A stretch of 64,000 bases of DNA from Candidatus Limnocylindria bacterium (GCA_035543375.1 DASZZF010000002.1:67202-131201), one strand, 5' to 3'; positions 5,938 through 49,076 are shown, numbered from the stretch's first letter. Made by a program: numbers and translations. The notes: generated from the sequence alone by a model not told the origin.

Positions 5938-7094
5938 CCGAGCGCACCAGCGGCATCCTGCTCGCGGCAGCGACCGCGATCGCGGTCGGGCTGACGTATA
6001 CCGACCAGGCGGCGCTCGTCCCGCTCATCCGCGCGGAGCTCGGCATCACCGACGTGCAGGCCGGGCTGTTGCCGACCGCGCTCTTCCTGACCTCGATCCC
6101 CACGATGCTCGTCACATCGACGCTCGCCGATCGCATCGGCGCGAAGCGCATGAACGGCTACGGCGTCGCGATCGCTCTCGCGGGGAATCTCCTGTTCAGC
6201 ATCGCGCCCTCGTACGAAGGCATGCTCGCGGCGAAAGCCGTCGGCGGCGTCGCGAGCGGGATGGCGTTCGTCGGCGGGGTCCGGTACATCAGTGGCCTCT
6301 ACGCCGGCGCGCGCTCGCATCTCGGTCAGGGCCTGTACGGAGCCGGGTATCCGCTGGGCACCGCGCTCGGCTTGCAGCTCTTGCCGCCGCTGGCCCTTGC
6401 GTTCGGCGGCTGGCGGGGCGCGTTCGTCGGCTCGAGCGCGCTCTTGCTCGTCGTCCTTGTCGTCTATGCGGTCGTCGCCCCAACGGTGCCCGCGCTACGG
6501 TTGGCGGGAGGCATCAGAGACGCACTGCGCGACGGGAACGCGTGGTGGTGTTTCGTCGAGCACGCGGCGGGCTTCGGACTGGCGCTCGCGACCGGCACCT
6601 GGGTGAGCGTCTTCGTCCTTCGCGAGTTCGACGCGTCGCTCGTCGTCGCCGGCGCGCTCGGGTCGCTCCTTCCCCTCATCGGTCTGGCCATGCGCCCGCT
6701 CGGTGGCTACCTCGTCGCGCGCGAGCGCGCGACGACGGTCGCGATCATGCGGGGGTCACAGCTCGTGAGCCTGACCGGGCTGGTGCTCCTCGCGTTCCCC
6801 GGAAGACCGCTCGCCGTCGCGGTGGTCGGCGGGCTGATGGTGGGGAGCGGTGCCGCCCTCCCGTACGCCGCCGTATTCAACACCGCGGCGGCCTCGCTGC
6901 GGCGCGCGCCGGGCGCCGCGCAGTCGCTCGCCGCGGCGGGCGGCACGTTCGGCGCGGTGCTCGGCGCGCCGGCGATGGGATTCGCGGTCGAGCGGTTCGG
7001 GTTCAGCGCGGCGTGGGCGGTCATCGCGATCCTGCCCGTGGCCGCGCTCGTGGGCACGTTCGTCCTGCGCGGCGAGGAGCAGCTCGCCCCTTAG
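5934..7094 (+). CDS. MFS transporter
   Basis: About 12 predicted TM helices. The first TM ([17 protein letters not shown]) starts right after CTG 5934, which overlaps the aceB TGA (CTGA). The nearest in-frame canonical start is either 200+ nt inside aceB or downstream of TM1, so the start is provisional. Confidence 0.8.
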
Positions 7095-7832
7095 CGGATG
7101 TCGTCCTGCTCGGCGATGAACACCAGGGCACGCCGAACTGTGATCCGACCGTTGCCGCGAGGGCCCTCACGCCGAGGGTTTCGGTGACCCAGTGCGAGCC
7201 GACGATGAGGTTGAGTCCCCGCTCGCGCGCGTAGCGCTTCGTGTACATCGATCCCTCGCCGGTGACAACGGTCTCCGCCGGTGCAGCCGCGCCTCCTCGA
7301 GCATGCTCGTGAGACCCACGCCGCCGGTGGCGATCGCCACGCGTTTGCACGTGGGCGCGTTCTCCCACGCCTCGATCGGTTCGCCGAGAGGGTCACATGC
7401 GCTCGCAGAGCTGCGCGAACGTCCGCTCGTGCCGGCCGACGTCGCCCGCCAAACCGCCGTGGTACGGGAGGAACCGCTCCTGCAGGGTGACTCCGAGCGC
7501 CGCCGCGAGCATCGGGATTGCCGAAACCCGGCGCGCCGTCGAGCGCGGAGTGGGCACCGTCCAGCGAGATCCCGTTGTCGCGGAGACGATCGAGCTTCTG
7601 GGGTTCGAGCTCGAGATCGATGTGTGGCCACGTCCGGTGATGGACGATGAGCAGGTCCGAGTCGGTGACCTTCGCGCGCGCGATCGCGTGGAACGACGTG
7701 TTTCACGGCCGCGGCGACGCGGGTCACCGTGTCGCCGGACCCAGGACGAGGCCGTTCGACGCTTCCTCATCGAACCTCCCGACCTCGACCGTCGCGTCGA
7801 GGAAGGCGGCGACATCGTCGAGCCTCGCTCAA
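7091..7832 (-). pseudogene. Nif3/YbgI family (GTP cyclohydrolase 1 type 2 homologue) gene disrupted by about 7 single-nt frameshifts
   Basis: Homology to YbgI-type proteins (NGL..G, LLIVHH, AHSALD, ATGG, VVTGE, GSHW.TE) is continuous only if the reading frame is switched about seven times across all three minus frames. Pieces appear in track ORFs 7393..7848, 7167..7727, 7021..7368 and 7091..7396. Confidence 0.75.
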
Positions 7833-9292
7833 CGGAGACGCTCGACAAGGAGCCGGCTCACGAGCGCGGGGTTCGCTTTCCCGCCGGTCTGCTGCATCAC
7901 CCGGCCGACGAGCGGGCCGAGCGCGCGCTGATTGCCGGCGCGGACGGCCGCCGCGGCCTCCGGCTCCTGCGCGATGATGGCGTCAACGGCAGCGGCGATG
8001 GCCCCTTCGTCGGACACCTGGGCGAGGCCCTTCTCGGCCACGATCTCGAGCGGGTCCCGCCCGGACGCGAGCATCGCGGCGAAGACCGTCTTCGCGGCCG
8101 TCGTGCTGATCGTGCCCGCGGCGATCAGCGACACGAGCGTGCCGAGCTGGGCCGCGCTGATCTCGACCTCCGCGAGTGCCTTCCCGGCGGCCCTGAGGTG
8201 GCCGAGCAGCTCCACCGTGACCCAATTGGCGACGCGCTTCGCCTCCCCGGGGGCCGCGCGGACCGCGTCCTCGAAAAAGGCGGCCAGCGCCCGGTCGGAA
8301 ACGAGGACGCGGGCGTCGTAATCCGAGAGCCCGTACTGCGTCACGAACCGCGCGCGCCGGTCGGACGGCATCTCGGGCAGCGCTGTGCGGATCCGCTCGA
8401 CCATCTCCCGGTCCGGCCGCAGCGCCACGAGGTCGGGCTCAGGGAAGTACCGGTAGTCATCGACATCCTCCTTGGTCCGCTGGACGTACGTGCGCCGCGA
8501 GTCGGGGCTCCAGCCGACGGTGATCTTGCCTTTCCGCGTTCGGAGCTCGCCGCCGTCCTGCCACTCGTTCCAGAGCCGGTCCGACTCGTACGCGACGGCG
8601 CCCTCGAGAGCGCGGAAGCTGTTGAGGTTCTTGATCTCGCTAAGCGGCGGCCACCGCGTCTCGCCGTCCTCCGTGAAGCGGATGGAGACGTTCACGTCGA
8701 AGCGCGCGCCACCCTCCTCGAGCTTGAACTCCGCGACGCCCGCGTACACGAGCCGCTCGCGCAGTAGCTCGAGGTACGCGAGCGACTCGCGAACCGAACG
8801 CAGGTCCGGGGCGCTGACGATCTCGAGGAGCGGCACGCCGGAGCGATTGAAATCGATGAGCGTCGCGCCAGCCGCGTGCAGCAGGCTGCCGGTGTCCTCC
8901 TCGAGATGCGCGCGGATGATGCCGACACGCTTCGCACGGCCGTCGTCGCCGGGTATTTCGAGCCAACCGTTCGACGAGAGCGGGAGGTCGTATTGCGAGA
9001 TCTGGTAGCCCTTCGGCAGGTCGGGATACATGTAGTTCTTGCGGTCGAACTTGGTATGCGCCGGGGTCTCGCAATGCAGCGCGATGCCGGCGGCGATTGA
9101 CAGCTCGATCGCCTTGCGGTTCGGGACCGGGAGCGCGCCAGGGAGGCCCAGGCAGACCTCGCACGTGAGGGTGTTCGGCGGGGCGCCGAACCATTTGGCC
9201 GAACAGCCGCAGAACATCTTCGAGCGCGTGTCGAGCTCGACGTGGCATTCGATGCCGATGATCGTTTCGTACGGCGGCGCGCTGACCGTCAC
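7829..9292 (-). CDS. gatB: Asp-tRNA(Asn)/Glu-tRNA(Gln) amidotransferase subunit B
   Basis: 487 aa, YETIIGIECHVELDTRSKMFCGC...CEVCLGLPGALPV. GTGA overlap with the upstream gene. Confidence 0.95.
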   Translation of the reverse strand: MTVSAPPYETIIGIECHVELDTRSKMFCGCSAKWFGAPPNTLTCEVCLGLPGALPVPNRKAIELSIAAGIALHCETPAHTKFDRKNYMYPDLPKGYQISQYDLPLSSNGWLEIPGDDGRAKRVGIIRAHLEEDTGSLLHAAGATLIDFNRSGVPLLEIVSAPDLRSVRESLAYLELLRERLVYAGVAEFKLEEGGARFDVNVSIRFTEDGETRWPPLSEIKNLNSFRALEGAVAYESDRLWNEWQDGGELRTRKGKITVGWSPDSRRTYVQRTKEDVDDYRYFPEPDLVALRPDREMVERIRTALPEMPSDRRARFVTQYGLSDYDARVLVSDRALAAFFEDAVRAAPGEAKRVANWVTVELLGHLRAAGKALAEVEISAAQLGTLVSLIAAGTISTTAAKTVFAAMLASGRDPLEIVAEKGLAQVSDEGAIAAAVDAIIAQEPEAAAAVRAGNQRALGPLVGRVMQQTGGKANPALVSRLLVERLR

Positions 9293-9804: not shown

Positions 9805-10670
9805 TACGCCGTCGCCCGCAATGCGCGCGCGATCGCCTCGCGGCTACCGCCATCCCACTCCGCGACGGCGGCGCGCAGCTCCGGGCGACGCCGCAGGACG
9901 TTGCGCACCGCTGCCGTGACCGCGCGGCCCACGAACGGCCGGGCGTCGGCGGCGAGGAACGACAGGATCCCGAATGCCCGCTCGGCGACGCGCGCCCCCG
10001 ATGCGGTCGTGAACGCCATCGCGACATTCCAGCGGACGTTCTCGTCGGGCTCGCGAGCCCACCGCTCGAGCGTGGCGAAGGTCTGGTCGGGGTAGGAACG
10101 CAGGAACTGATCTCCGATGGCGAACGGGCCGAGGCTCCGACGGACGTATTCGTCATGGTCGGTGCGCGCCGGGGCGACGAGCGCGAGTAACCGCTCGGCC
10201 CGCTCGGGTCGTCGCGACCGGGCCGCGTACTTGGCACCGACGACGACCGCGCGCCGGAGCCGGGCATCGCCCGATGCCATCCACCCTTCGGCGATCCGCA
10301 GATACGGATCGAACCGGCGCTCGAGGGCATCGCCGAGCAGCGACGCTGACGTCTCGCGCACCTCCCAGTCGTCGTCGCGGGCGAGCCGATAGATCGCGCG
10401 CTCGAGGTCCGGCTGGTGGCTCTCCACGAGCGGCCGCAACATCACCGCGGCGAGCTCCTTGTCGACCCGGCGGGGATGCGCGAGCAGCCGCGCCGCCCAG
10501 TCGCGCCGGACCAGGGAGGCGACGCTCATGGTCCGCACGACCGCGGTCGCGCGCGAGAATGCGGCCTTCCTCACCCACCCGTTCTCGCCCGTATTCCGCA
10601 GGATGTCGGAGGCGCGCAACGGATCGCCGTCGGCGAGGGCGTCGCGGAACGCGCCCTCCCAGTCGATCAG
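9804..10670 (-). CDS. HEAT-repeat protein (DNA alkylation repair AlkC/AlkD-like, tentative)
   Basis: Repeated DxxWxVR-type HEAT motifs (RDDDWEVRETSA, EPDENVRWNVAMAF). The track ORF 9804..11105 is 5'-extended through the aminotransferase gene. I placed the provisional start at CTG 10668-10670, which overlaps the aminotransferase TGA. The alternative start is GTG 32 codons downstream. Confidence 0.6.
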   Translation of the reverse strand: MIDWEGAFRDALADGDPLRASDILRNTGENGWVRKAAFSRATAVVRTMSVASLVRRDWAARLLAHPRRVDKELAAVMLRPLVESHQPDLERAIYRLARDDDWEVRETSASLLGDALERRFDPYLRIAEGWMASGDARLRRAVVVGAKYAARSRRPERAERLLALVAPARTDHDEYVRRSLGPFAIGDQFLRSYPDQTFATLERWAREPDENVRWNVAMAFTTASGARVAERAFGILSFLAADARPFVGRAVTAAVRNVLRRRPELRAAVAEWDGGSREAIARALRATA

Positions 10671-11836
10671 AGCCGCCCGATGAATCGCTCGACGCGGTCG
10701 CAGGCCTCTTCGATCCGTTCCATCGATGCCGCGTAGCAGGCGCGGATATGGCCGGCGCCGTGCTCGCCGAACGCGCTGCCCGGCACGACGACGACCTTCT
10801 CCTCGGTGAGGAGCCGTTCGGAGAACTCGCCGTCGGACAGGCCGGTGCTCGTGATGTTCGGGAAGCAGTAGAAGGCGCCACGCGGCTCGAAGCAGCTGAG
10901 TCCCATGGCGTTGAACCGCTCGTACATCCGCTTGCGACGCTTGTCGTACTGGGCAACCATCGCGCGGACCTCGTCCTCGCCGCTGCGGAGCGCCTCCAGC
11001 GCCGCGTGCTGGGCCGCCGTCGGCACGCACATCACCGTGTACTGATGGATCTTCATCATCTGCTCGATGATCTCTGCCGGGGCGCAGGCGTAGCCCACGC
11101 GCCAACCGGTCATCGCGTACGACTTCGAGAATCCCGCGAGGTAGATGGTGCGCTCCTTCATCGCGGACTCGCCCAGGATCGAGTGGAACTCAACGCCGTA
11201 GACGAGACGGTCGTAGATCTCGTCGGCGTAGATCAGGAGGTCGTGCTCGCGCGCGAGCGCAGCGATGCCCGCGACGTCCTCGGGCAGGAGCACCGCGCCG
11301 GTCGGGTTGTTCGGGAAGCCGAGCAGGATCGCGCGGGTCCGCGGCGTGACCGCTTTCCGCACGTCCTCGGGCCGAAGCCGGAAGTCGGAGCGCTCCTCCG
11401 TGGGCACCCCGACCGGCACGCCGCCGGCGAGGATGATGCCGGGAACGTAGGCGACGTACGACGGGTCGGCGACGATGACCTCGTCCCCGTCATTCAACGT
11501 CGCCCGGAGGGCGAGGTCGACCGCCTCGGAGACGCCGACGGTGACGAGGATCTCGAGCAGCGGGTCGTACGCCACCCCGCGCAGCCGCTCCGTGTGCGCG
11601 GCGATCGCCTCGCGGAGCGCGAGCAGCCCGTAGTTCGAGGTGTATTGCGTCTGGCCGTCCACGATCGACTTGATCGCCGCGTTGCGGAACGCGTCCGGCG
11701 TGACGAAGTCGGGCTCACCGACGCCGAGTGAGATGACGCCCTCGAGGCCGGTGGCGAGGTCGAAGAACCGCCGGATGCCGCTCGCCGGCAGGCGGGCGAC
11801 GCGCCCATTCGTGAGCGAGCGCTTCGCGAGCGTCAT
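10667..11836 (-). CDS. pyridoxal-phosphate-dependent aminotransferase, class I/II (AspC-like)
   Basis: GVGEPDF...NNPTG...SKSYAMTGWRVGY motifs. ATGA overlap with the gatA stop. Confidence 0.9.
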   Translation of the reverse strand: MTLAKRSLTNGRVARLPASGIRRFFDLATGLEGVISLGVGEPDFVTPDAFRNAAIKSIVDGQTQYTSNYGLLALREAIAAHTERLRGVAYDPLLEILVTVGVSEAVDLALRATLNDGDEVIVADPSYVAYVPGIILAGGVPVGVPTEERSDFRLRPEDVRKAVTPRTRAILLGFPNNPTGAVLLPEDVAGIAALAREHDLLIYADEIYDRLVYGVEFHSILGESAMKERTIYLAGFSKSYAMTGWRVGYACAPAEIIEQMMKIHQYTVMCVPTAAQHAALEALRSGEDEVRAMVAQYDKRRKRMYERFNAMGLSCFEPRGAFYCFPNITSTGLSDGEFSERLLTEEKVVVVPGSAFGEHGAGHIRACYAASMERIEEACDRVERFIGRL

Positions 11837-13600: not shown

Positions 13601-14035
13601 CTACGGGCGGAACAGCGCGACCATGTGCGGCGCGAACACGAGCAGGCCGACCGCGACCGAGGCGATCGCGGCGACGAACACCATCCCGGCGGCGATATCC
13701 TTGGCCGCCCGGGCCTCGGGCCGGTGCTCCGGTGACGCGAGGGTGACCGCGAGCTCGATGCCGGTGTTCAGACCCTCCATCATGACGACGAGCGCGATCG
13801 TCAGCGCGACCAGTGCCCACTCGATGGCGCTCAGGCCGACCGCAAGGCCGATCACGATGGCCGTGGCCGCGGCGAGGAGATGCAGACGGAAGTTCCGCTG
13901 GGTCCGGACCAGATAGGCGATCCCCGCGAGCGCGTATGCGAAGGAGCGCACGCCGACAGTGTGCGCCCGCTGGCCTGCGACGTGCTCCGCGGATCCGCTG
14001 GCAGCGACGGCGGGAGGTCTCGCTGACCCATGCAT
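13601..14035 (-). CDS. dgkA: diacylglycerol/undecaprenol kinase family protein
   Basis: SFAYALAGI...MMEGLNTGIELAV...AKDIAAGMVFV motifs at the C-terminal end of track ORF 13601..14878. The start is either ATG 14035 or GTG 13951. Confidence 0.75.
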   Translation of the reverse strand: MHGSARPPAVAASGSAEHVAGQRAHTVGVRSFAYALAGIAYLVRTQRNFRLHLLAAATAIVIGLAVGLSAIEWALVALTIALVVMMEGLNTGIELAVTLASPEHRPEARAAKDIAAGMVFVAAIASVAVGLLVFAPHMVALFRP

Positions 14036-14968
14036 CCTGATGTCCTCGCGCACGTCAAGTGGTTCACCGACCCCGTACCGTACCCGACCGAATGGTCGCT
14101 GCTCCTCACCCTCCCCGTTCTGGCGGCATTCGCGGCCGCGCTCGCCGCCGCCGGCATCGCCGCGTATATCCAGCACCACGTCGCCGAGCCGGGCGCGCTC
14201 AAATGGCTCGAGCGCTACGCTAAGACCGGTCCGCTCGTACTCGGCCTGCACGTCGGCGCCGCGCTGTGCGTCGCGGCGATCGCGGGGATCCTCTTCACGC
14301 CGAACCTGCGCCCGAACGATGACGTCCTCGGGCGCGCGATCCTCGTCATCGAGGCGATGTGCGGCGTGATGCTGCTGCTCGGCCTTGCCACGCGCGCGGC
14401 CGCGGTGCTCCTGGTTTCGCTCGGGATCCTGGCGCTGCAGCCATTCACGTTCGAAAGCATTTTCGAGAACGTCCACATCCTGGGTATCGCGATGTTCTTC
14501 TTCATCGTCGGGCGCGGCCCCGTGTCGCTCGATCGCGTCCGTGGCATTCGCCCGCCGATCCGCCACGCTGAGGCGCCGGCCGCGGCGCTCGCGCTGCTGC
14601 GGCTGGCCCTCGGACTCGGCATCGCGTTCAGCGCGTTGACCGAGAAGCTCCTCGACCCCGGGCTCGCGCAGGCGCTCCTCGATCAGCGCCCGTTCCTGAA
14701 CGTCGGACGGGCATTCGGGCTGGGCGACCCGCAGTTCGCGTATCTCGTCGGAGTCACCGAGCTCACGATCGGCGTCGTGATCGTCTCGGGCCAGCTCACC
14801 CGACCGGTGATGGCGGTCGGGGCCCTCATCTTCACATCGTCGCTCCCGCTGTTCGGGTGGTCCGAGTTCCTCGGCCACCTGCCGTTCTACGGGATCATGT
14901 TCATGCTGTTCATCGCGCCGAACGCCGACTCGTGGGCGGTGAAACGGCAGCTCCGTCCATCCACGTAA
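14030..14968 (+). CDS. polytopic membrane protein (DoxX-like, tentative)
   Basis: 312 aa with ~8 hydrophobic helices. High GC3. GGGAGG lies upstream. Confidence 0.7.
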   Translation: MHPDVLAHVKWFTDPVPYPTEWSLLLTLPVLAAFAAALAAAGIAAYIQHHVAEPGALKWLERYAKTGPLVLGLHVGAALCVAAIAGILFTPNLRPNDDVLGRAILVIEAMCGVMLLLGLATRAAAVLLVSLGILALQPFTFESIFENVHILGIAMFFFIVGRGPVSLDRVRGIRPPIRHAEAPAAALALLRLALGLGIAFSALTEKLLDPGLAQALLDQRPFLNVGRAFGLGDPQFAYLVGVTELTIGVVIVSGQLTRPVMAVGALIFTSSLPLFGWSEFLGHLPFYGIMFMLFIAPNADSWAVKRQLRPST

Positions 14969-15003
14969 CGCCGGGCTACGCGGGGGCTGTGAGCGCCCCT
15001 GGG

Positions 15004-15388
15004 CTAGCGGAGCGGCAGCGACAGCTGGAACGTCGCGCCCATGCCCGGCCCGATGCTATCCGCGCTCAGGCGACCGACGTGCGCTTCGGCAAGGATGGCG
15101 AGGCCACGAAGACCACGAGCCCGGTCGCGAGGTTCCGGCCACCGGGCGCGGGGAGAAAGCCCTCCTCCTTGACCATATCGACCGACCAGGCGACCGCCGA
15201 GGCAGCGGAGATCGCAACGCCGGCGCCGCGCCCTCAGAGCAGCCTGACCGCGACGACTGGCAGGACGTACAGGACCACGAAGGAGTGTCGTCGGGGGTGA
15301 CGATACCGGCCCACATGATCGCCGCCGTCGCGACCAGTCCGAGACCGACCGCCAGGCTGTCGCGCAGCCGTGGATCCAACCGTCTCAT
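15004..15388 (-). pseudogene. remnant of a sensor histidine kinase (two TM segments plus the extreme C-terminus of the ATPase domain, spread over three frames)
   Basis: Frame ending at TAG 15004-15006 reads GLRGLAILAEAHVGRLSADSIGPGMGATFQLSLPLR, which resembles the G2 box to the end of HATPase_c. The upstream frames give TM-like LAVGLGLVATAAIMWAGIV and SFVVLYVLPVVAV. There is no HisKA/H-box. Confidence 0.35.
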
Positions 15389-15470
15389 CACCTTTCGCAA
15401 ATGTGGGCCGAGTCGACGAGCGGCGCATTCCTCGGTCGGATGACTGGGTATCGACCAAATGGTGGAGCGG

Positions 15471-16829
15471 CTAGGCCCCTTGCGGCGAGCCGCTCGGGTC
15501 AAGCGACACGAAGTACGAGTCGCAGGCCATGTCGATCAGATCGGGCGTGAGCTGCGCCGGGCGACCAAGGAACCGCGCCGTGTCGGTGAGCTGCTCGAGG
15601 ATGTCGCGCGGGTGGCAGGAGCGGAGCCCGAGGTTCTTGCGCCGGTAATGCGCCAGGATCTGGGAGAGCGCCTCGGCGCGGTAGTCGATCTGCTTGCGCG
15701 CGCACATGCGCTTGAAGATCTCCTCGTACTGCTCGACGGTGGGCGCCTCGATGCCGATCTTGTAGCGGATCCGGCGGAGGAACGCCTCGTCGACCAGGTC
15801 CGCGGGATCGAGGTTGGTCGAGAAGATGATGAGCATGTCGAACGGGATCTCGAGCTTCTTCCCGGTGTGCAGGGTGAGGTAGTCGACCCGTTTCTCGAGC
15901 GGCACGATCCACCGGTTCAGGAGATCGCGTGGTGAGACGCGCTGCCGGCCGAAGTCGTCGACCATGAAGATGCCGCCGTTCGCTTTCATCTGGAATGGCG
16001 CCTCGTAGAACTTCGATGTCTCGTCGTAGATGAGATCGAGCGTCTCGAGGGTCAGCTCGCCGCCGGTCATGACGATCGGACGCTTGCTCACGATCCAGCG
16101 ATGATCGAACCGCAAGCGGTCGGCGACGATCGGATCGAGCGCCGCTCGGTGGTAGACCTGGTCGTAGACCTTGATCACCTGTCGATCGACCTCGATCGCG
16201 TACGGCAGGACGACCTCGCCACGCAACAGGGAGACGAGCACCTCCGCGATCGTCGTCTTGCCGTTCCCAGGTGGGCCGAACAGGAAGATGGACTTGCCGG
16301 AGTTCACGGCCGGCCCGAGCTGCCCGAGCGTCTCGCGCGGGATGACCATGTGCGCGAACGCCTTGGCGAGCTCTTCCTGGGTGACCGAGATGTTGCTGAT
16401 CGTCTGCCGCTTCACCGCGTCGAGGTACGCCGCGAGCGGGACGGGGGCCTTCCCGACGTACTGACTGCGCGCGAGCGCCTCCTGCGCCTTCTCGGAGCCG
16501 CGATCGACGATGACGAACTGGTAGCTCGCGGCCGACAGGCCGGTCCCGCCACGGATCTCGACGAGCCGCTCGCCCTTCAGGTATTCCATGACCTTGTCAA
16601 CGACGTTCGTCATCGGCAGCCCGAGCGCGGTGGCGACCTCGCCCATCGTCATCTGGCCGCGCAGGTAGAGCGTTTTCAGCGCGAGGTCGGCGATGAAGCT
16701 GAGCGAGAGGCCTGTCTGCTCGATGGACTGCGGCTCGGGCGGGAGTGCAATCTCCGGCGCGCCGGGGGCGGCGCCGGTCGCGCCGGCAAGCGGCATCGTG
16801 GGTGCCGGCCGGGTCTGCGGCTGATACAC
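15471..16829 (-). CDS. AAA+ ATPase with N-terminal winged-helix-like region
   Basis: Walker A FLFGPPGNGKTT, Walker B IFMVDDFGRQ, arginine finger region AFLRRI. Confidence 0.85.
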   Translation of the reverse strand: MYQPQTRPAPTMPLAGATGAAPGAPEIALPPEPQSIEQTGLSLSFIADLALKTLYLRGQMTMGEVATALGLPMTNVVDKVMEYLKGERLVEIRGGTGLSAASYQFVIVDRGSEKAQEALARSQYVGKAPVPLAAYLDAVKRQTISNISVTQEELAKAFAHMVIPRETLGQLGPAVNSGKSIFLFGPPGNGKTTIAEVLVSLLRGEVVLPYAIEVDRQVIKVYDQVYHRAALDPIVADRLRFDHRWIVSKRPIVMTGGELTLETLDLIYDETSKFYEAPFQMKANGGIFMVDDFGRQRVSPRDLLNRWIVPLEKRVDYLTLHTGKKLEIPFDMLIIFSTNLDPADLVDEAFLRRIRYKIGIEAPTVEQYEEIFKRMCARKQIDYRAEALSQILAHYRRKNLGLRSCHPRDILEQLTDTARFLGRPAQLTPDLIDMACDSYFVSLDPSGSPQGA

Positions 16830-47788: not shown

Positions 47789-48639
47789 GGCGCGACCTTG
47801 ATCCCCATGCGCTCCGCCAGGGCCCGGAAGACCAGATCCGGACGCTCGTCGCGCAGCAGCGGGTTGCGGGCCCGTTCGCGCGCGACGAGGGCCGGGTCGA
47901 TCTCCGCAATGACGAGCTCTTCCTCGAACTCCTTCGCCCGGGCGACGACCGTGCCATCCGGCGCGACGACCTCGGACCCGCCCCAGAAGCCGACGCCGTC
48001 CTCGTGACCGACCCGATTCGCGAACGCCACGTACACCGTGAGGTATTGGGCATAGAAACGATCCATCGACCGGCAGGATGCCGCGGTGCCGAGGTCTCCG
48101 CCCTCAGCGACCCCGCGCCCGGGGCTCGAGGCGGGCGCCAGGATCACGCTGGCCCCCGCGATCGCGTACAGGTATGGAACGGAGAGATGCCAGAGATCCT
48201 CGCAGATCGCGAGGCCCGCGGTGCCAACGGCGCTCTCGAACGTCTCGAACGCATCACCGGGCCCGAAGTAGCGGCCGTCGTCGAAGATCCCATACGTCGG
48301 CAGGTACACCTTGCGGTGCACGTGACGCAACGCGCCGCCCGACCAGTAGCCCTGTGCGATGTGCAGCTTCGCGTCCTTCGATCGCTCGACGAAGCCCGCG
48401 ACGACGTCGATGTCGCGCGATGCACGGGCGATCGGCGCCAGGACCGGATCGTCGGCAGAGCACGCGACGTCCGCGGCGAGGTCCTTCAGGTAGTAACCGG
48501 TGAGGGACAGCTCCGGGAACACGACCAGGCGTGCCTCCGCCGCCCGCGCCCGGTCGACCCACTCCCGATGCATCTCGACATTCCGTTTGACCGCGCCGAG
48601 CGCGGGCGAGCATTGGGCGATCGCGACCCGCACGCTCAT
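47785..48639 (-). CDS. carbon-nitrogen hydrolase (nitrilase superfamily), a likely glutaminase partner of NadE
   Basis: VVFPELSLTGY...HRKVYLP...LAICEDLW catalytic E-K-C triad context. Confidence 0.9.
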   Translation of the reverse strand: MSVRVAIAQCSPALGAVKRNVEMHREWVDRARAAEARLVVFPELSLTGYYLKDLAADVACSADDPVLAPIARASRDIDVVAGFVERSKDAKLHIAQGYWSGGALRHVHRKVYLPTYGIFDDGRYFGPGDAFETFESAVGTAGLAICEDLWHLSVPYLYAIAGASVILAPASSPGRGVAEGGDLGTAASCRSMDRFYAQYLTVYVAFANRVGHEDGVGFWGGSEVVAPDGTVVARAKEFEEELVIAEIDPALVARERARNPLLRDERPDLVFRALAERMGIKVAP

Positions 48640-49070
48640 GAGCCGCGGAAGGTCCCGACGCGGTTGGCGTACTCGTTCGCGAGGGCAAGCGCGCGACGCT
48701 CATCGGCGGCCTCGGCCCAGATGTTGAACAACCAGTACCCGTCCGCGACGTACCCGTAGAGCGGCTCGCCGTCCGCGAGCAGCTGCGGGAATAGATCCTT
48801 GCTGAAATCGAAGGCCTCACCAACCGGATAACGCTCCAGCAGCCGCGGCTCGATGACGTAGATGCCGGTGTTGATCATGTCCGAGAACATTTCGCCCCAC
48901 GCGAGATATTGCAGCGTGACGACCGCGTCGGCCATGTCGTGCGACTTCAGCAGATCGAAAATGTGGCCGAGGCAGGGCCGGTTGACGATCGCCACCATCG
49001 GCTTGGGCCGGTTGATCGTGAGCGGCCGGAGGCGGCTACCCTCGCCGCCGGCCATGACGACAGCCTGCAT
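48636..49070 (-). pseudogene. nucleotidyltransferase (mannose-1-P guanylyltransferase-like) remnant with an in-frame internal deletion and truncated C-terminus
   Basis: N-terminal MAGGEGSRLRPLTINRPKPMV...VVTLQYL joins directly to WGEMFSDMINTGIYVIEP...GEPLYGYVADGYW. From memory, these blocks are about 110 residues apart in intact family members. Confidence 0.5.
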
Positions 49071-49076
49071 CCGAGT

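Follow-up and report, generated by a model that had tools for sequence, protein, structure and literature searches.

Between gatB and a convergent MFS transporter gene of a Candidatus Limnocylindria genome (Chloroflexota, soil-type and uncultured) lies a stretch of DNA along which homology to the NIF3/YbgI family can be followed only by changing reading frame repeatedly. Is this a conserved gene in decay, or an intact gene broken up by a faulty stretch of assembly? The question was addressed within a 64-kb stretch of DNA (hereafter the window; G+C content 69%). The features at issue are:

7091..7832, minus strand: probable unitary pseudogene of NIF3/DUF34 (YbgI/SA1388-type), 742 nt where intact orthologues have 750 nt
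7829..9292, minus strand: gatB, intact upstream neighbour, 487 aa (HVR87999.1)
6054..7094, plus strand: MFS transporter, intact convergent neighbour, 346 aa (HVR87997.1)

Exact protein look-ups place both neighbours in an NCBI third-party-annotated MAG with VHG53_* locus tags. From the accessions of the two neighbours, HVR87998.1 would be expected between them in the NCBI numbering.

Identity and extent of the NIF3 relic

The original prediction traced a NIF3/YbgI homologue from a TTG at 7832, which forms TTGA with the gatB stop, to a terminal TAA, along a path of peptide segments lying in different frames. Translation of the three minus-strand frames recovered all eight listed segments in the frames given, together with the TTG (7832-7830), which shares bases with the gatB TGA (7831-7829), and the TAA (7093-7091, minus strand). 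Concatenated, the 246-residue path matches Pfam PF01784 (DUF34_NIF3) at 99.4 bits (E=3.4e-28; cut-off 23.4 bits) over profile positions 3-253 of 256, which bears out the claimed homology; the path aligns over its full extent to TIGR00486 and to the E. coli YbgI model as well. The score against TIGR00486 YbgI_SA1388 is 91.1 bits, below the cut-off of 130.55, a shortfall of little weight. The best individual ORF of the region, a C-terminal piece, scores 24.9 bits against Pfam, and the other ORFs are nearly silent. Of the matches listed when 5.8 billion proteins were searched, the nearest intact ones have 249 aa and are up to 82% identical to the path, and the named matches belong to Candidatus Limnocylindria or Chloroflexota MAGs. 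Judged from these alignments, the NIF3 similarity of the frame-corrected path is far above chance.

The predicted metal-ligand motifs VHHR, GAHSALD and GSHWVTE can be read in the segments by alignment to YbgI (1NMO), with six of six ligand codons kept; the ligand identities (HH; H-x3-D; H-x3-E) are those of the 1NMO structure. The corrected frame has no internal stop codon. No second NIF3 copy was found within the window, and the pseudogene stretch yielded no Rfam family and no promoter-like or terminator-like site. Exact look-up of 10 ORF and start-codon variants from the pseudogene found none of them in the protein collection. Alternative identities of the stretch were considered and rejected: the sole tandem-repeat match (7037-7063, score 33) is inside the MFS gene and outside the pseudogene, and the plus-strand ORFs of the stretch have no Pfam match.

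Neighbouring genes and synteny

Both neighbours had been described as intact, and their domain coverage agrees. GatB spans GatB_N (2-277 of 277) and GatB_Yqey (2-148 of 148) in full, while the MFS protein covers MFS_1 and aligns over residues 1-345 to its orthologue. The MFS stop overlaps the pseudogene stop; the NCBI protein HVR87997.1 starts earlier.

The closest relative found is ENA contig ERZ27315166 k141_4944689 (hereafter L001), which encodes an intact NIF3 protein (P0001). Its gene order is gatC, gatA, aminotransferase, 171-aa gene, gatB, NIF3, convergent MFS and malate synthase, and the NIF3 start overlaps the gatB stop (ATGA). Window and L001 are collinear over about 17 kb with protein identities of 78% to 97%; NIF3 itself is 84% identical in the corrected frame. 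In JGI metagenomes scanned with the C-terminus of GatB, the nearest relative stood at 69%. Comparison with the orthologous locus in related genomes, which the original prediction had proposed, revealed an intact, single-frame, 249-codon NIF3 between gatB and the convergent MFS gene at more than 30 related Candidatus Limnocylindria loci, the same arrangement being present in 22 GTDB genomes and about 15 JGI/ENA contigs. These orthologues are 747-750 nt long and without indels among 14 species, and 128 of 249 residues are invariant (15 species). The gene is always coupled to gatB in Limnocylindria and directly follows it in the relatives, L001 included, as expected from the proposed place at the end of the gat operon. 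In having intact syntenic orthologues in its relatives, the relic has the setting predicted for a unitary pseudogene.

Two further differences from L001 were observed in the operon. GatB of the window (7829-9292) is 78% identical to that of L001 (8541-10004), against 94% for GatA, 91% for the aminotransferase and 97% for a 451-aa ATPase. Thirty GatB changes are found in L001 only and 12 in the window only, and L001 has 17 unique changes at invariant columns, so that gatB of L001 may have evolved faster or been replaced by another allele. Decay of the window GatB was rejected, given its full Pfam coverage and a divergence that belongs for the most part to the L001 branch. In the window, the aminotransferase and the 171-aa gene are separated by a HEAT / DNA_alkylation-like gene (9849-10691, minus strand; about 270 aa). 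The interval between these two genes has the same size in most Limnocylindria relatives, and in L001 they abut; L001 appears to have lost the HEAT / DNA_alkylation-like gene.

Seven frameshifts confined to the gene

DNA alignment to 14 intact orthologues, themselves mutually gap-free, resolved exactly seven frameshifting indels, none a multiple of three. In minus-strand order these are:

Between 7826 and 7825, minus strand: 2-nt deletion, codon 3
Between 7742 and 7741, minus strand: 1-nt deletion, Arg32 codon CGG to GG
7703-7701, minus strand: 1-nt insertion in an A-run, AA to AAA, codon 44/45
Between 7512 and 7511, minus strand: 2-nt deletion, GACCTG to GATG, codons 108-109
7397-7394, minus strand: 2-nt deletion in ATGCGCGAC, codons 147-148, which makes ATG-TGA in that frame
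7279-7278, minus strand: 1-nt deletion in a G-run, GGG to GG, codon 187
7124-7123, minus strand: 1-nt deletion in a G-run, GGG to GG, codon 239

Three 2-nt deletions, three 1-nt deletions and one 1-nt insertion give a net change of -8 nt (742 against 750). The count of about seven put forward originally is thus right, whereas the description of all of them as single-nucleotide events is not, since three remove two bases. Their predicted positions were correct to within about 10 bases, the sixth lying about 10 nt from the 7290 first given. Several had been placed in short homopolymers; only three of the seven are, in A- and G-runs, and the other four lie outside such runs.

The damage extends from codon 3 to codon 239 of 249 and lies entirely within the gene boundaries, and the overlapping ends of gatB and MFS carry none. 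Read from the TTG start, the NIF3 frame is lost at codon 3 and a stop follows after about 23 codons, so a functional NIF3 protein is impossible by ordinary translation. No uninterrupted reading frame covers the whole domain, the longest in-frame piece being 62 codons. The share of indels is rather high, at seven against about 20-30 inferred neutral substitutions.

Signs of relaxed constraint on the frame-corrected sequence

Amino acid replacements were counted on the frame-corrected translation with junction codons masked, the outgroup state being taken where at least 80% of 14 other species agree. Private NIF3 replacements number 22 for the window and 5 for the sister L001 (binomial p=0.0015). 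In columns on which the 15 intact orthologues agree (141 in all), the window has 14 unique changes; the corresponding counts for the others are 0-8 (median 1). Radical changes at invariant residues include Y92D, F56V, L202R, QLEER to TVGSQ, A174V (TGGAG motif) and A218V (HWATE). At near-invariant nucleotide sites there are 39 window-private changes, distributed 14/15/10 over codon positions 1/2/3, such that second positions have changed as often as first. Intact lineages have 4-16 private changes at such sites (28 in the deepest), with typically 0-4 at position 2. In every pairwise comparison, NIF3 identity is 4-8 points under the value that the MFS and malate synthase genes on its flank would predict.

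An NG86 dN/dS comparison of the window with L001 over 13 genes gave NIF3 an omega of 0.18, within the range of its neighbours, with synonymous sites that look saturated. Whatever the gene or species pair, synonymous distances come to about 0.45-0.6 (GC3 about 0.9), and because of this saturation omega has no discriminating power; relative-rate and invariant-site counts were used instead.

A private excess was also observed in the class I/II aminotransferase of the same operon (10667-11836, minus strand), which has 16 window-only and 2 L001-only replacements. Ten of its changes fall at columns invariant in 11 orthologues; they are scattered and mostly conservative, and the frame is intact. This pattern is best described as lineage-specific rate acceleration without frame damage. 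Lineage rate variation therefore accounts for part of the NIF3 replacement signal, and the NIF3 excess is moderate, supportive rather than overwhelming for relaxed selection. Taken with this weight, the counts point to relaxed purifying selection on the relic relative to its orthologues.

Disrupted NIF3 genes in other assemblies

About 33 other NIF3 loci are intact, and three are disrupted. In the MAG UBA4730 (DHJC01000059.1; positions 7989-8729 of locus L022), NIF3 is broken at the syntenic locus by four indels (-2, -1, +1, -1). It also shows 11 changes in 143 invariant columns, and the two aligned ligand histidines are among the residues replaced (H95R, H216Q). The lineage of UBA4730 differs from that of the window (GatA 81% identical to L001). 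A single 53-nt deletion interrupts NIF3 in WNGO01270436.1 (positions 645-1338 of locus L036), and a distant Dehalococcoidia MAG (L024, 7992-8716) has one frameshift. No indel is common to the window and the UBA4730, WNGO01270436 or Dehalococcoidia genes. Since it shares no indel with the window and belongs to a different lineage, the UBA4730 break is an independent event. It is possible, though somewhat doubtful, that NIF3 at this locus has undergone several independent inactivations, in the window, UBA4730, WNGO01270436 and perhaps the Dehalococcoidia MAG, making a natural knock-out set.

Reading frames and decayed genes in the rest of the window

A scan of codon-position composition demonstrated that nearly the whole window is tiled by long coding zones, the exceptions being the NIF3 stretch and 14969-15470. 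Decayed genes aside, the reading frames of the roughly 60 other genes are uninterrupted. When the 10 shortest or most suspicious ORFs were compared with Pfam, 7 were near full-length, 2 had no match and 1 was truncated. The consistent coding zones and Pfam coverage indicate that the assembly is not generally riddled with frameshifts. Two further loci bear signs of decay:

14969-15470, minus strand: sensor-kinase-like (HATPase_c) remnant, between a 451-aa ATPase (15471-16829) and a DoxX-like gene (14030-14968)
48636-49076, minus strand: likely NTP-transferase remnant ORF, 146 aa, matching NTP_transferase profile positions 2-56 of 245 only

L001 and several other relatives have the sensor-kinase-like gene intact (319 aa). 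In the window, where it lies some 7 kb from the relic of NIF3, it measures about 500 bp instead of 960 bp; an internal deletion of 614 bp is seen at a TCCT microhomology, and seven small gaps interrupt the 390 bases that still align (75% identity). The alignment of the 146-aa ORF with homologues of about 800-840 aa falls into two blocks (1-57 and 155-216); the ORF is likely what internal deletion and C-terminal truncation have left of a large nucleotidyltransferase, and would be the third decayed gene in the window.

Independent assemblies and alternative explanations

Logan contigs from runs SRR12277199 and SRR12277200 match the window at 100% identity over 5256/5461-7121 and 9218-11051/11066, so that the flanks are confirmed, as are the final 27 nt of the pseudogene (7094-7121). 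The contigs of both runs break exactly at 7121 and 9218 but differ at their other ends. The first break is three bases from the seventh indel, and the interval between the two coincides closely with the NIF3 pseudogene plus gatB. Breaks this reproducible suggest a branch in the assembly graph, from k-mers shared within the community or from strain variants, and the population may be heterogeneous near 7121. Exact look-ups, including 10 guessed edge-truncated GatB products, found no second assembly covering 7122-7828, and a literature search on the two runs and on Limnocylindria pseudogenes found nothing.

The original prediction had left two explanations side by side, an old pseudogene or a locally error-prone assembly. 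Under the second, the real NIF3 is intact, and the seven indels with some of the substitutions come from an error-prone or strain-chimeric stretch. Its source in a metagenome-assembled genome, the three homopolymer indels, the Logan contigs ending on either side of NIF3 and gatB, and the failure of look-ups to retrieve 7122-7828 from an independent assembly are all compatible with such an error. However, the errors would have to run from the third codon to the 239th of one gene and yet spare gatB within the same bracketed interval, and an error-prone assembly block has no cause to follow gene boundaries. The three 2-nt deletions lie outside homopolymers, and an excess of conserved-residue replacements over all codon positions is unlike indel-type error. 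The remaining genes of the window, some 60, keep uninterrupted frames. The k141_ contig names of related TPA MAGs are of the kind usual in short-read MEGAHIT assembly, in which indel errors are rare, and the same may apply to this MAG. Similar decay of NIF3 is also present in the unrelated assembly UBA4730. We consider an assembly or consensus artefact unlikely.

A polymorphic locus, at which intact and decayed alleles coexist or gatB-NIF3 haplotypes recombine and the MAG happens to show the broken version, is very unlikely. The reproducible breaks in two SRA runs would fit it, and the GatB identity to L001, low beside that of GatA, hints at allele replacement around gatB; however, that anomaly lies mostly on the L001 branch. 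No fragment more than 82% identical to the NIF3 path is present among the best 120 matches of the 5.8-billion-protein search (Logan, ENA, JGI, NCBI), within which an in-frame fragment of at least about 90 aa from a near-identical intact allele would rank. Even at a polymorphic locus, the sequenced allele would still be a real pseudogene. That recoding (programmed frameshifting, transcriptional slippage or editing) or separate functional fragments keep the protein working is scarcely credible: the six readable ligand codons and the stop-free corrected frame would suit it, but the seven shifts differ in size and direction and have no slippery motif in common, the region holds no Rfam element or structured signal, the radical replacements at invariant residues speak against function, and the fold needs both halves where the longest piece is 62 aa and the start frame soon stops.

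We conclude that 7091-7832 is very probably a genuine unitary NIF3/DUF34 pseudogene, which is much likelier than an assembly artefact. This reading is favoured because of the excess of conserved-site replacements, the confinement of the damage to the gene, the other decayed genes in the window and the NIF3 pseudogene of UBA4730. Homology, synteny, the indels, the surplus of replacements and the intactness of the neighbours are shown directly by the comparisons; we infer that the sequence represents the real genome rather than an assembly error, and that the gene was dispensable. The word 'old' in the original prediction is relative, as all six ligand codons can still be made out and the gene can be traced over its full length.

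Comparison with known systems

As a member of NIF3/DUF34 (PF01784; TIGR00486; YbgI 1NMO; T. thermophilus TTHA1606 2YYB), the relic matches the full profile with the same domain order, its HH, H-x3-D and H-x3-E motifs align to YbgI, and at about 250 codons it resembles the short bacterial form. Unlike working members, it has a frame broken seven times and several family-invariant residues replaced. By its sequence, the relic is assigned to NIF3/DUF34 by descent, and it lacks the open frame required of a working member. Its synteny is identical to that of intact Limnocylindria orthologues such as L001, to which the window copy adds the seven indels and about 17 extra replacements. The pseudogene of UBA4730 is alike in gene, position and mode of decay (small non-triplet indels with invariant-site replacements), but it has lost two ligand histidines that the window copy keeps.

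Bacterial pseudogenes carry small indels, have a deletional bias, as has reportedly been described, and are retained for a time before deletion. The relic resembles classical bacterial unitary pseudogenes in its slippage-prone contexts and in substitutions spread across codon positions, and its six-to-one excess of deletions fits the known bias; for the number of substitutions, its indels are rather dense. The case is one of ordinary gene loss, a new instance of a familiar kind and neither a new element type nor a new mechanism.

Proposed history and meaning of the loss

In the ancestor, a 249-codon NIF3 would have been the last gene of an operon gatC-gatA-aminotransferase-HEAT-171aa-gatB-NIF3, its start overlapping the gatB stop. 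The gene would then have become dispensable in this Candidatus Limnocylindria lineage and lost its selection, which is plausible because DUF34/NIF3 is reported to be non-essential in the great majority of those bacteria for which data exist (PMC8469502). An inactivating change was presumably followed by drift, in which six small deletions and one insertion accumulated, some of the deletions probably through slippage at short runs and at a GC repeat, along with some 15-20 additional amino-acid-changing substitutions. The retention of the ligand codons and the lack of a stop in the corrected frame indicate that the decay is not extremely old. The 742-nt remnant would now be only a spacer between the convergent gatB and MFS genes, as yet undeleted.

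For annotation, the locus should carry the label frameshifted NIF3 pseudogene. The three gene remnants in 64 kb, NIF3 and two others, suggest ongoing gene loss in this Limnocylindria lineage. The relic represents the natural loss of a member of a universally distributed protein family whose function remains unsettled. Repeated independent loss of a strongly conserved, gatB-coupled NIF3 in Limnocylindria would be usable for co-loss analysis and, if all of the losses are real, the genes lost together with NIF3 could point to the function of the family.
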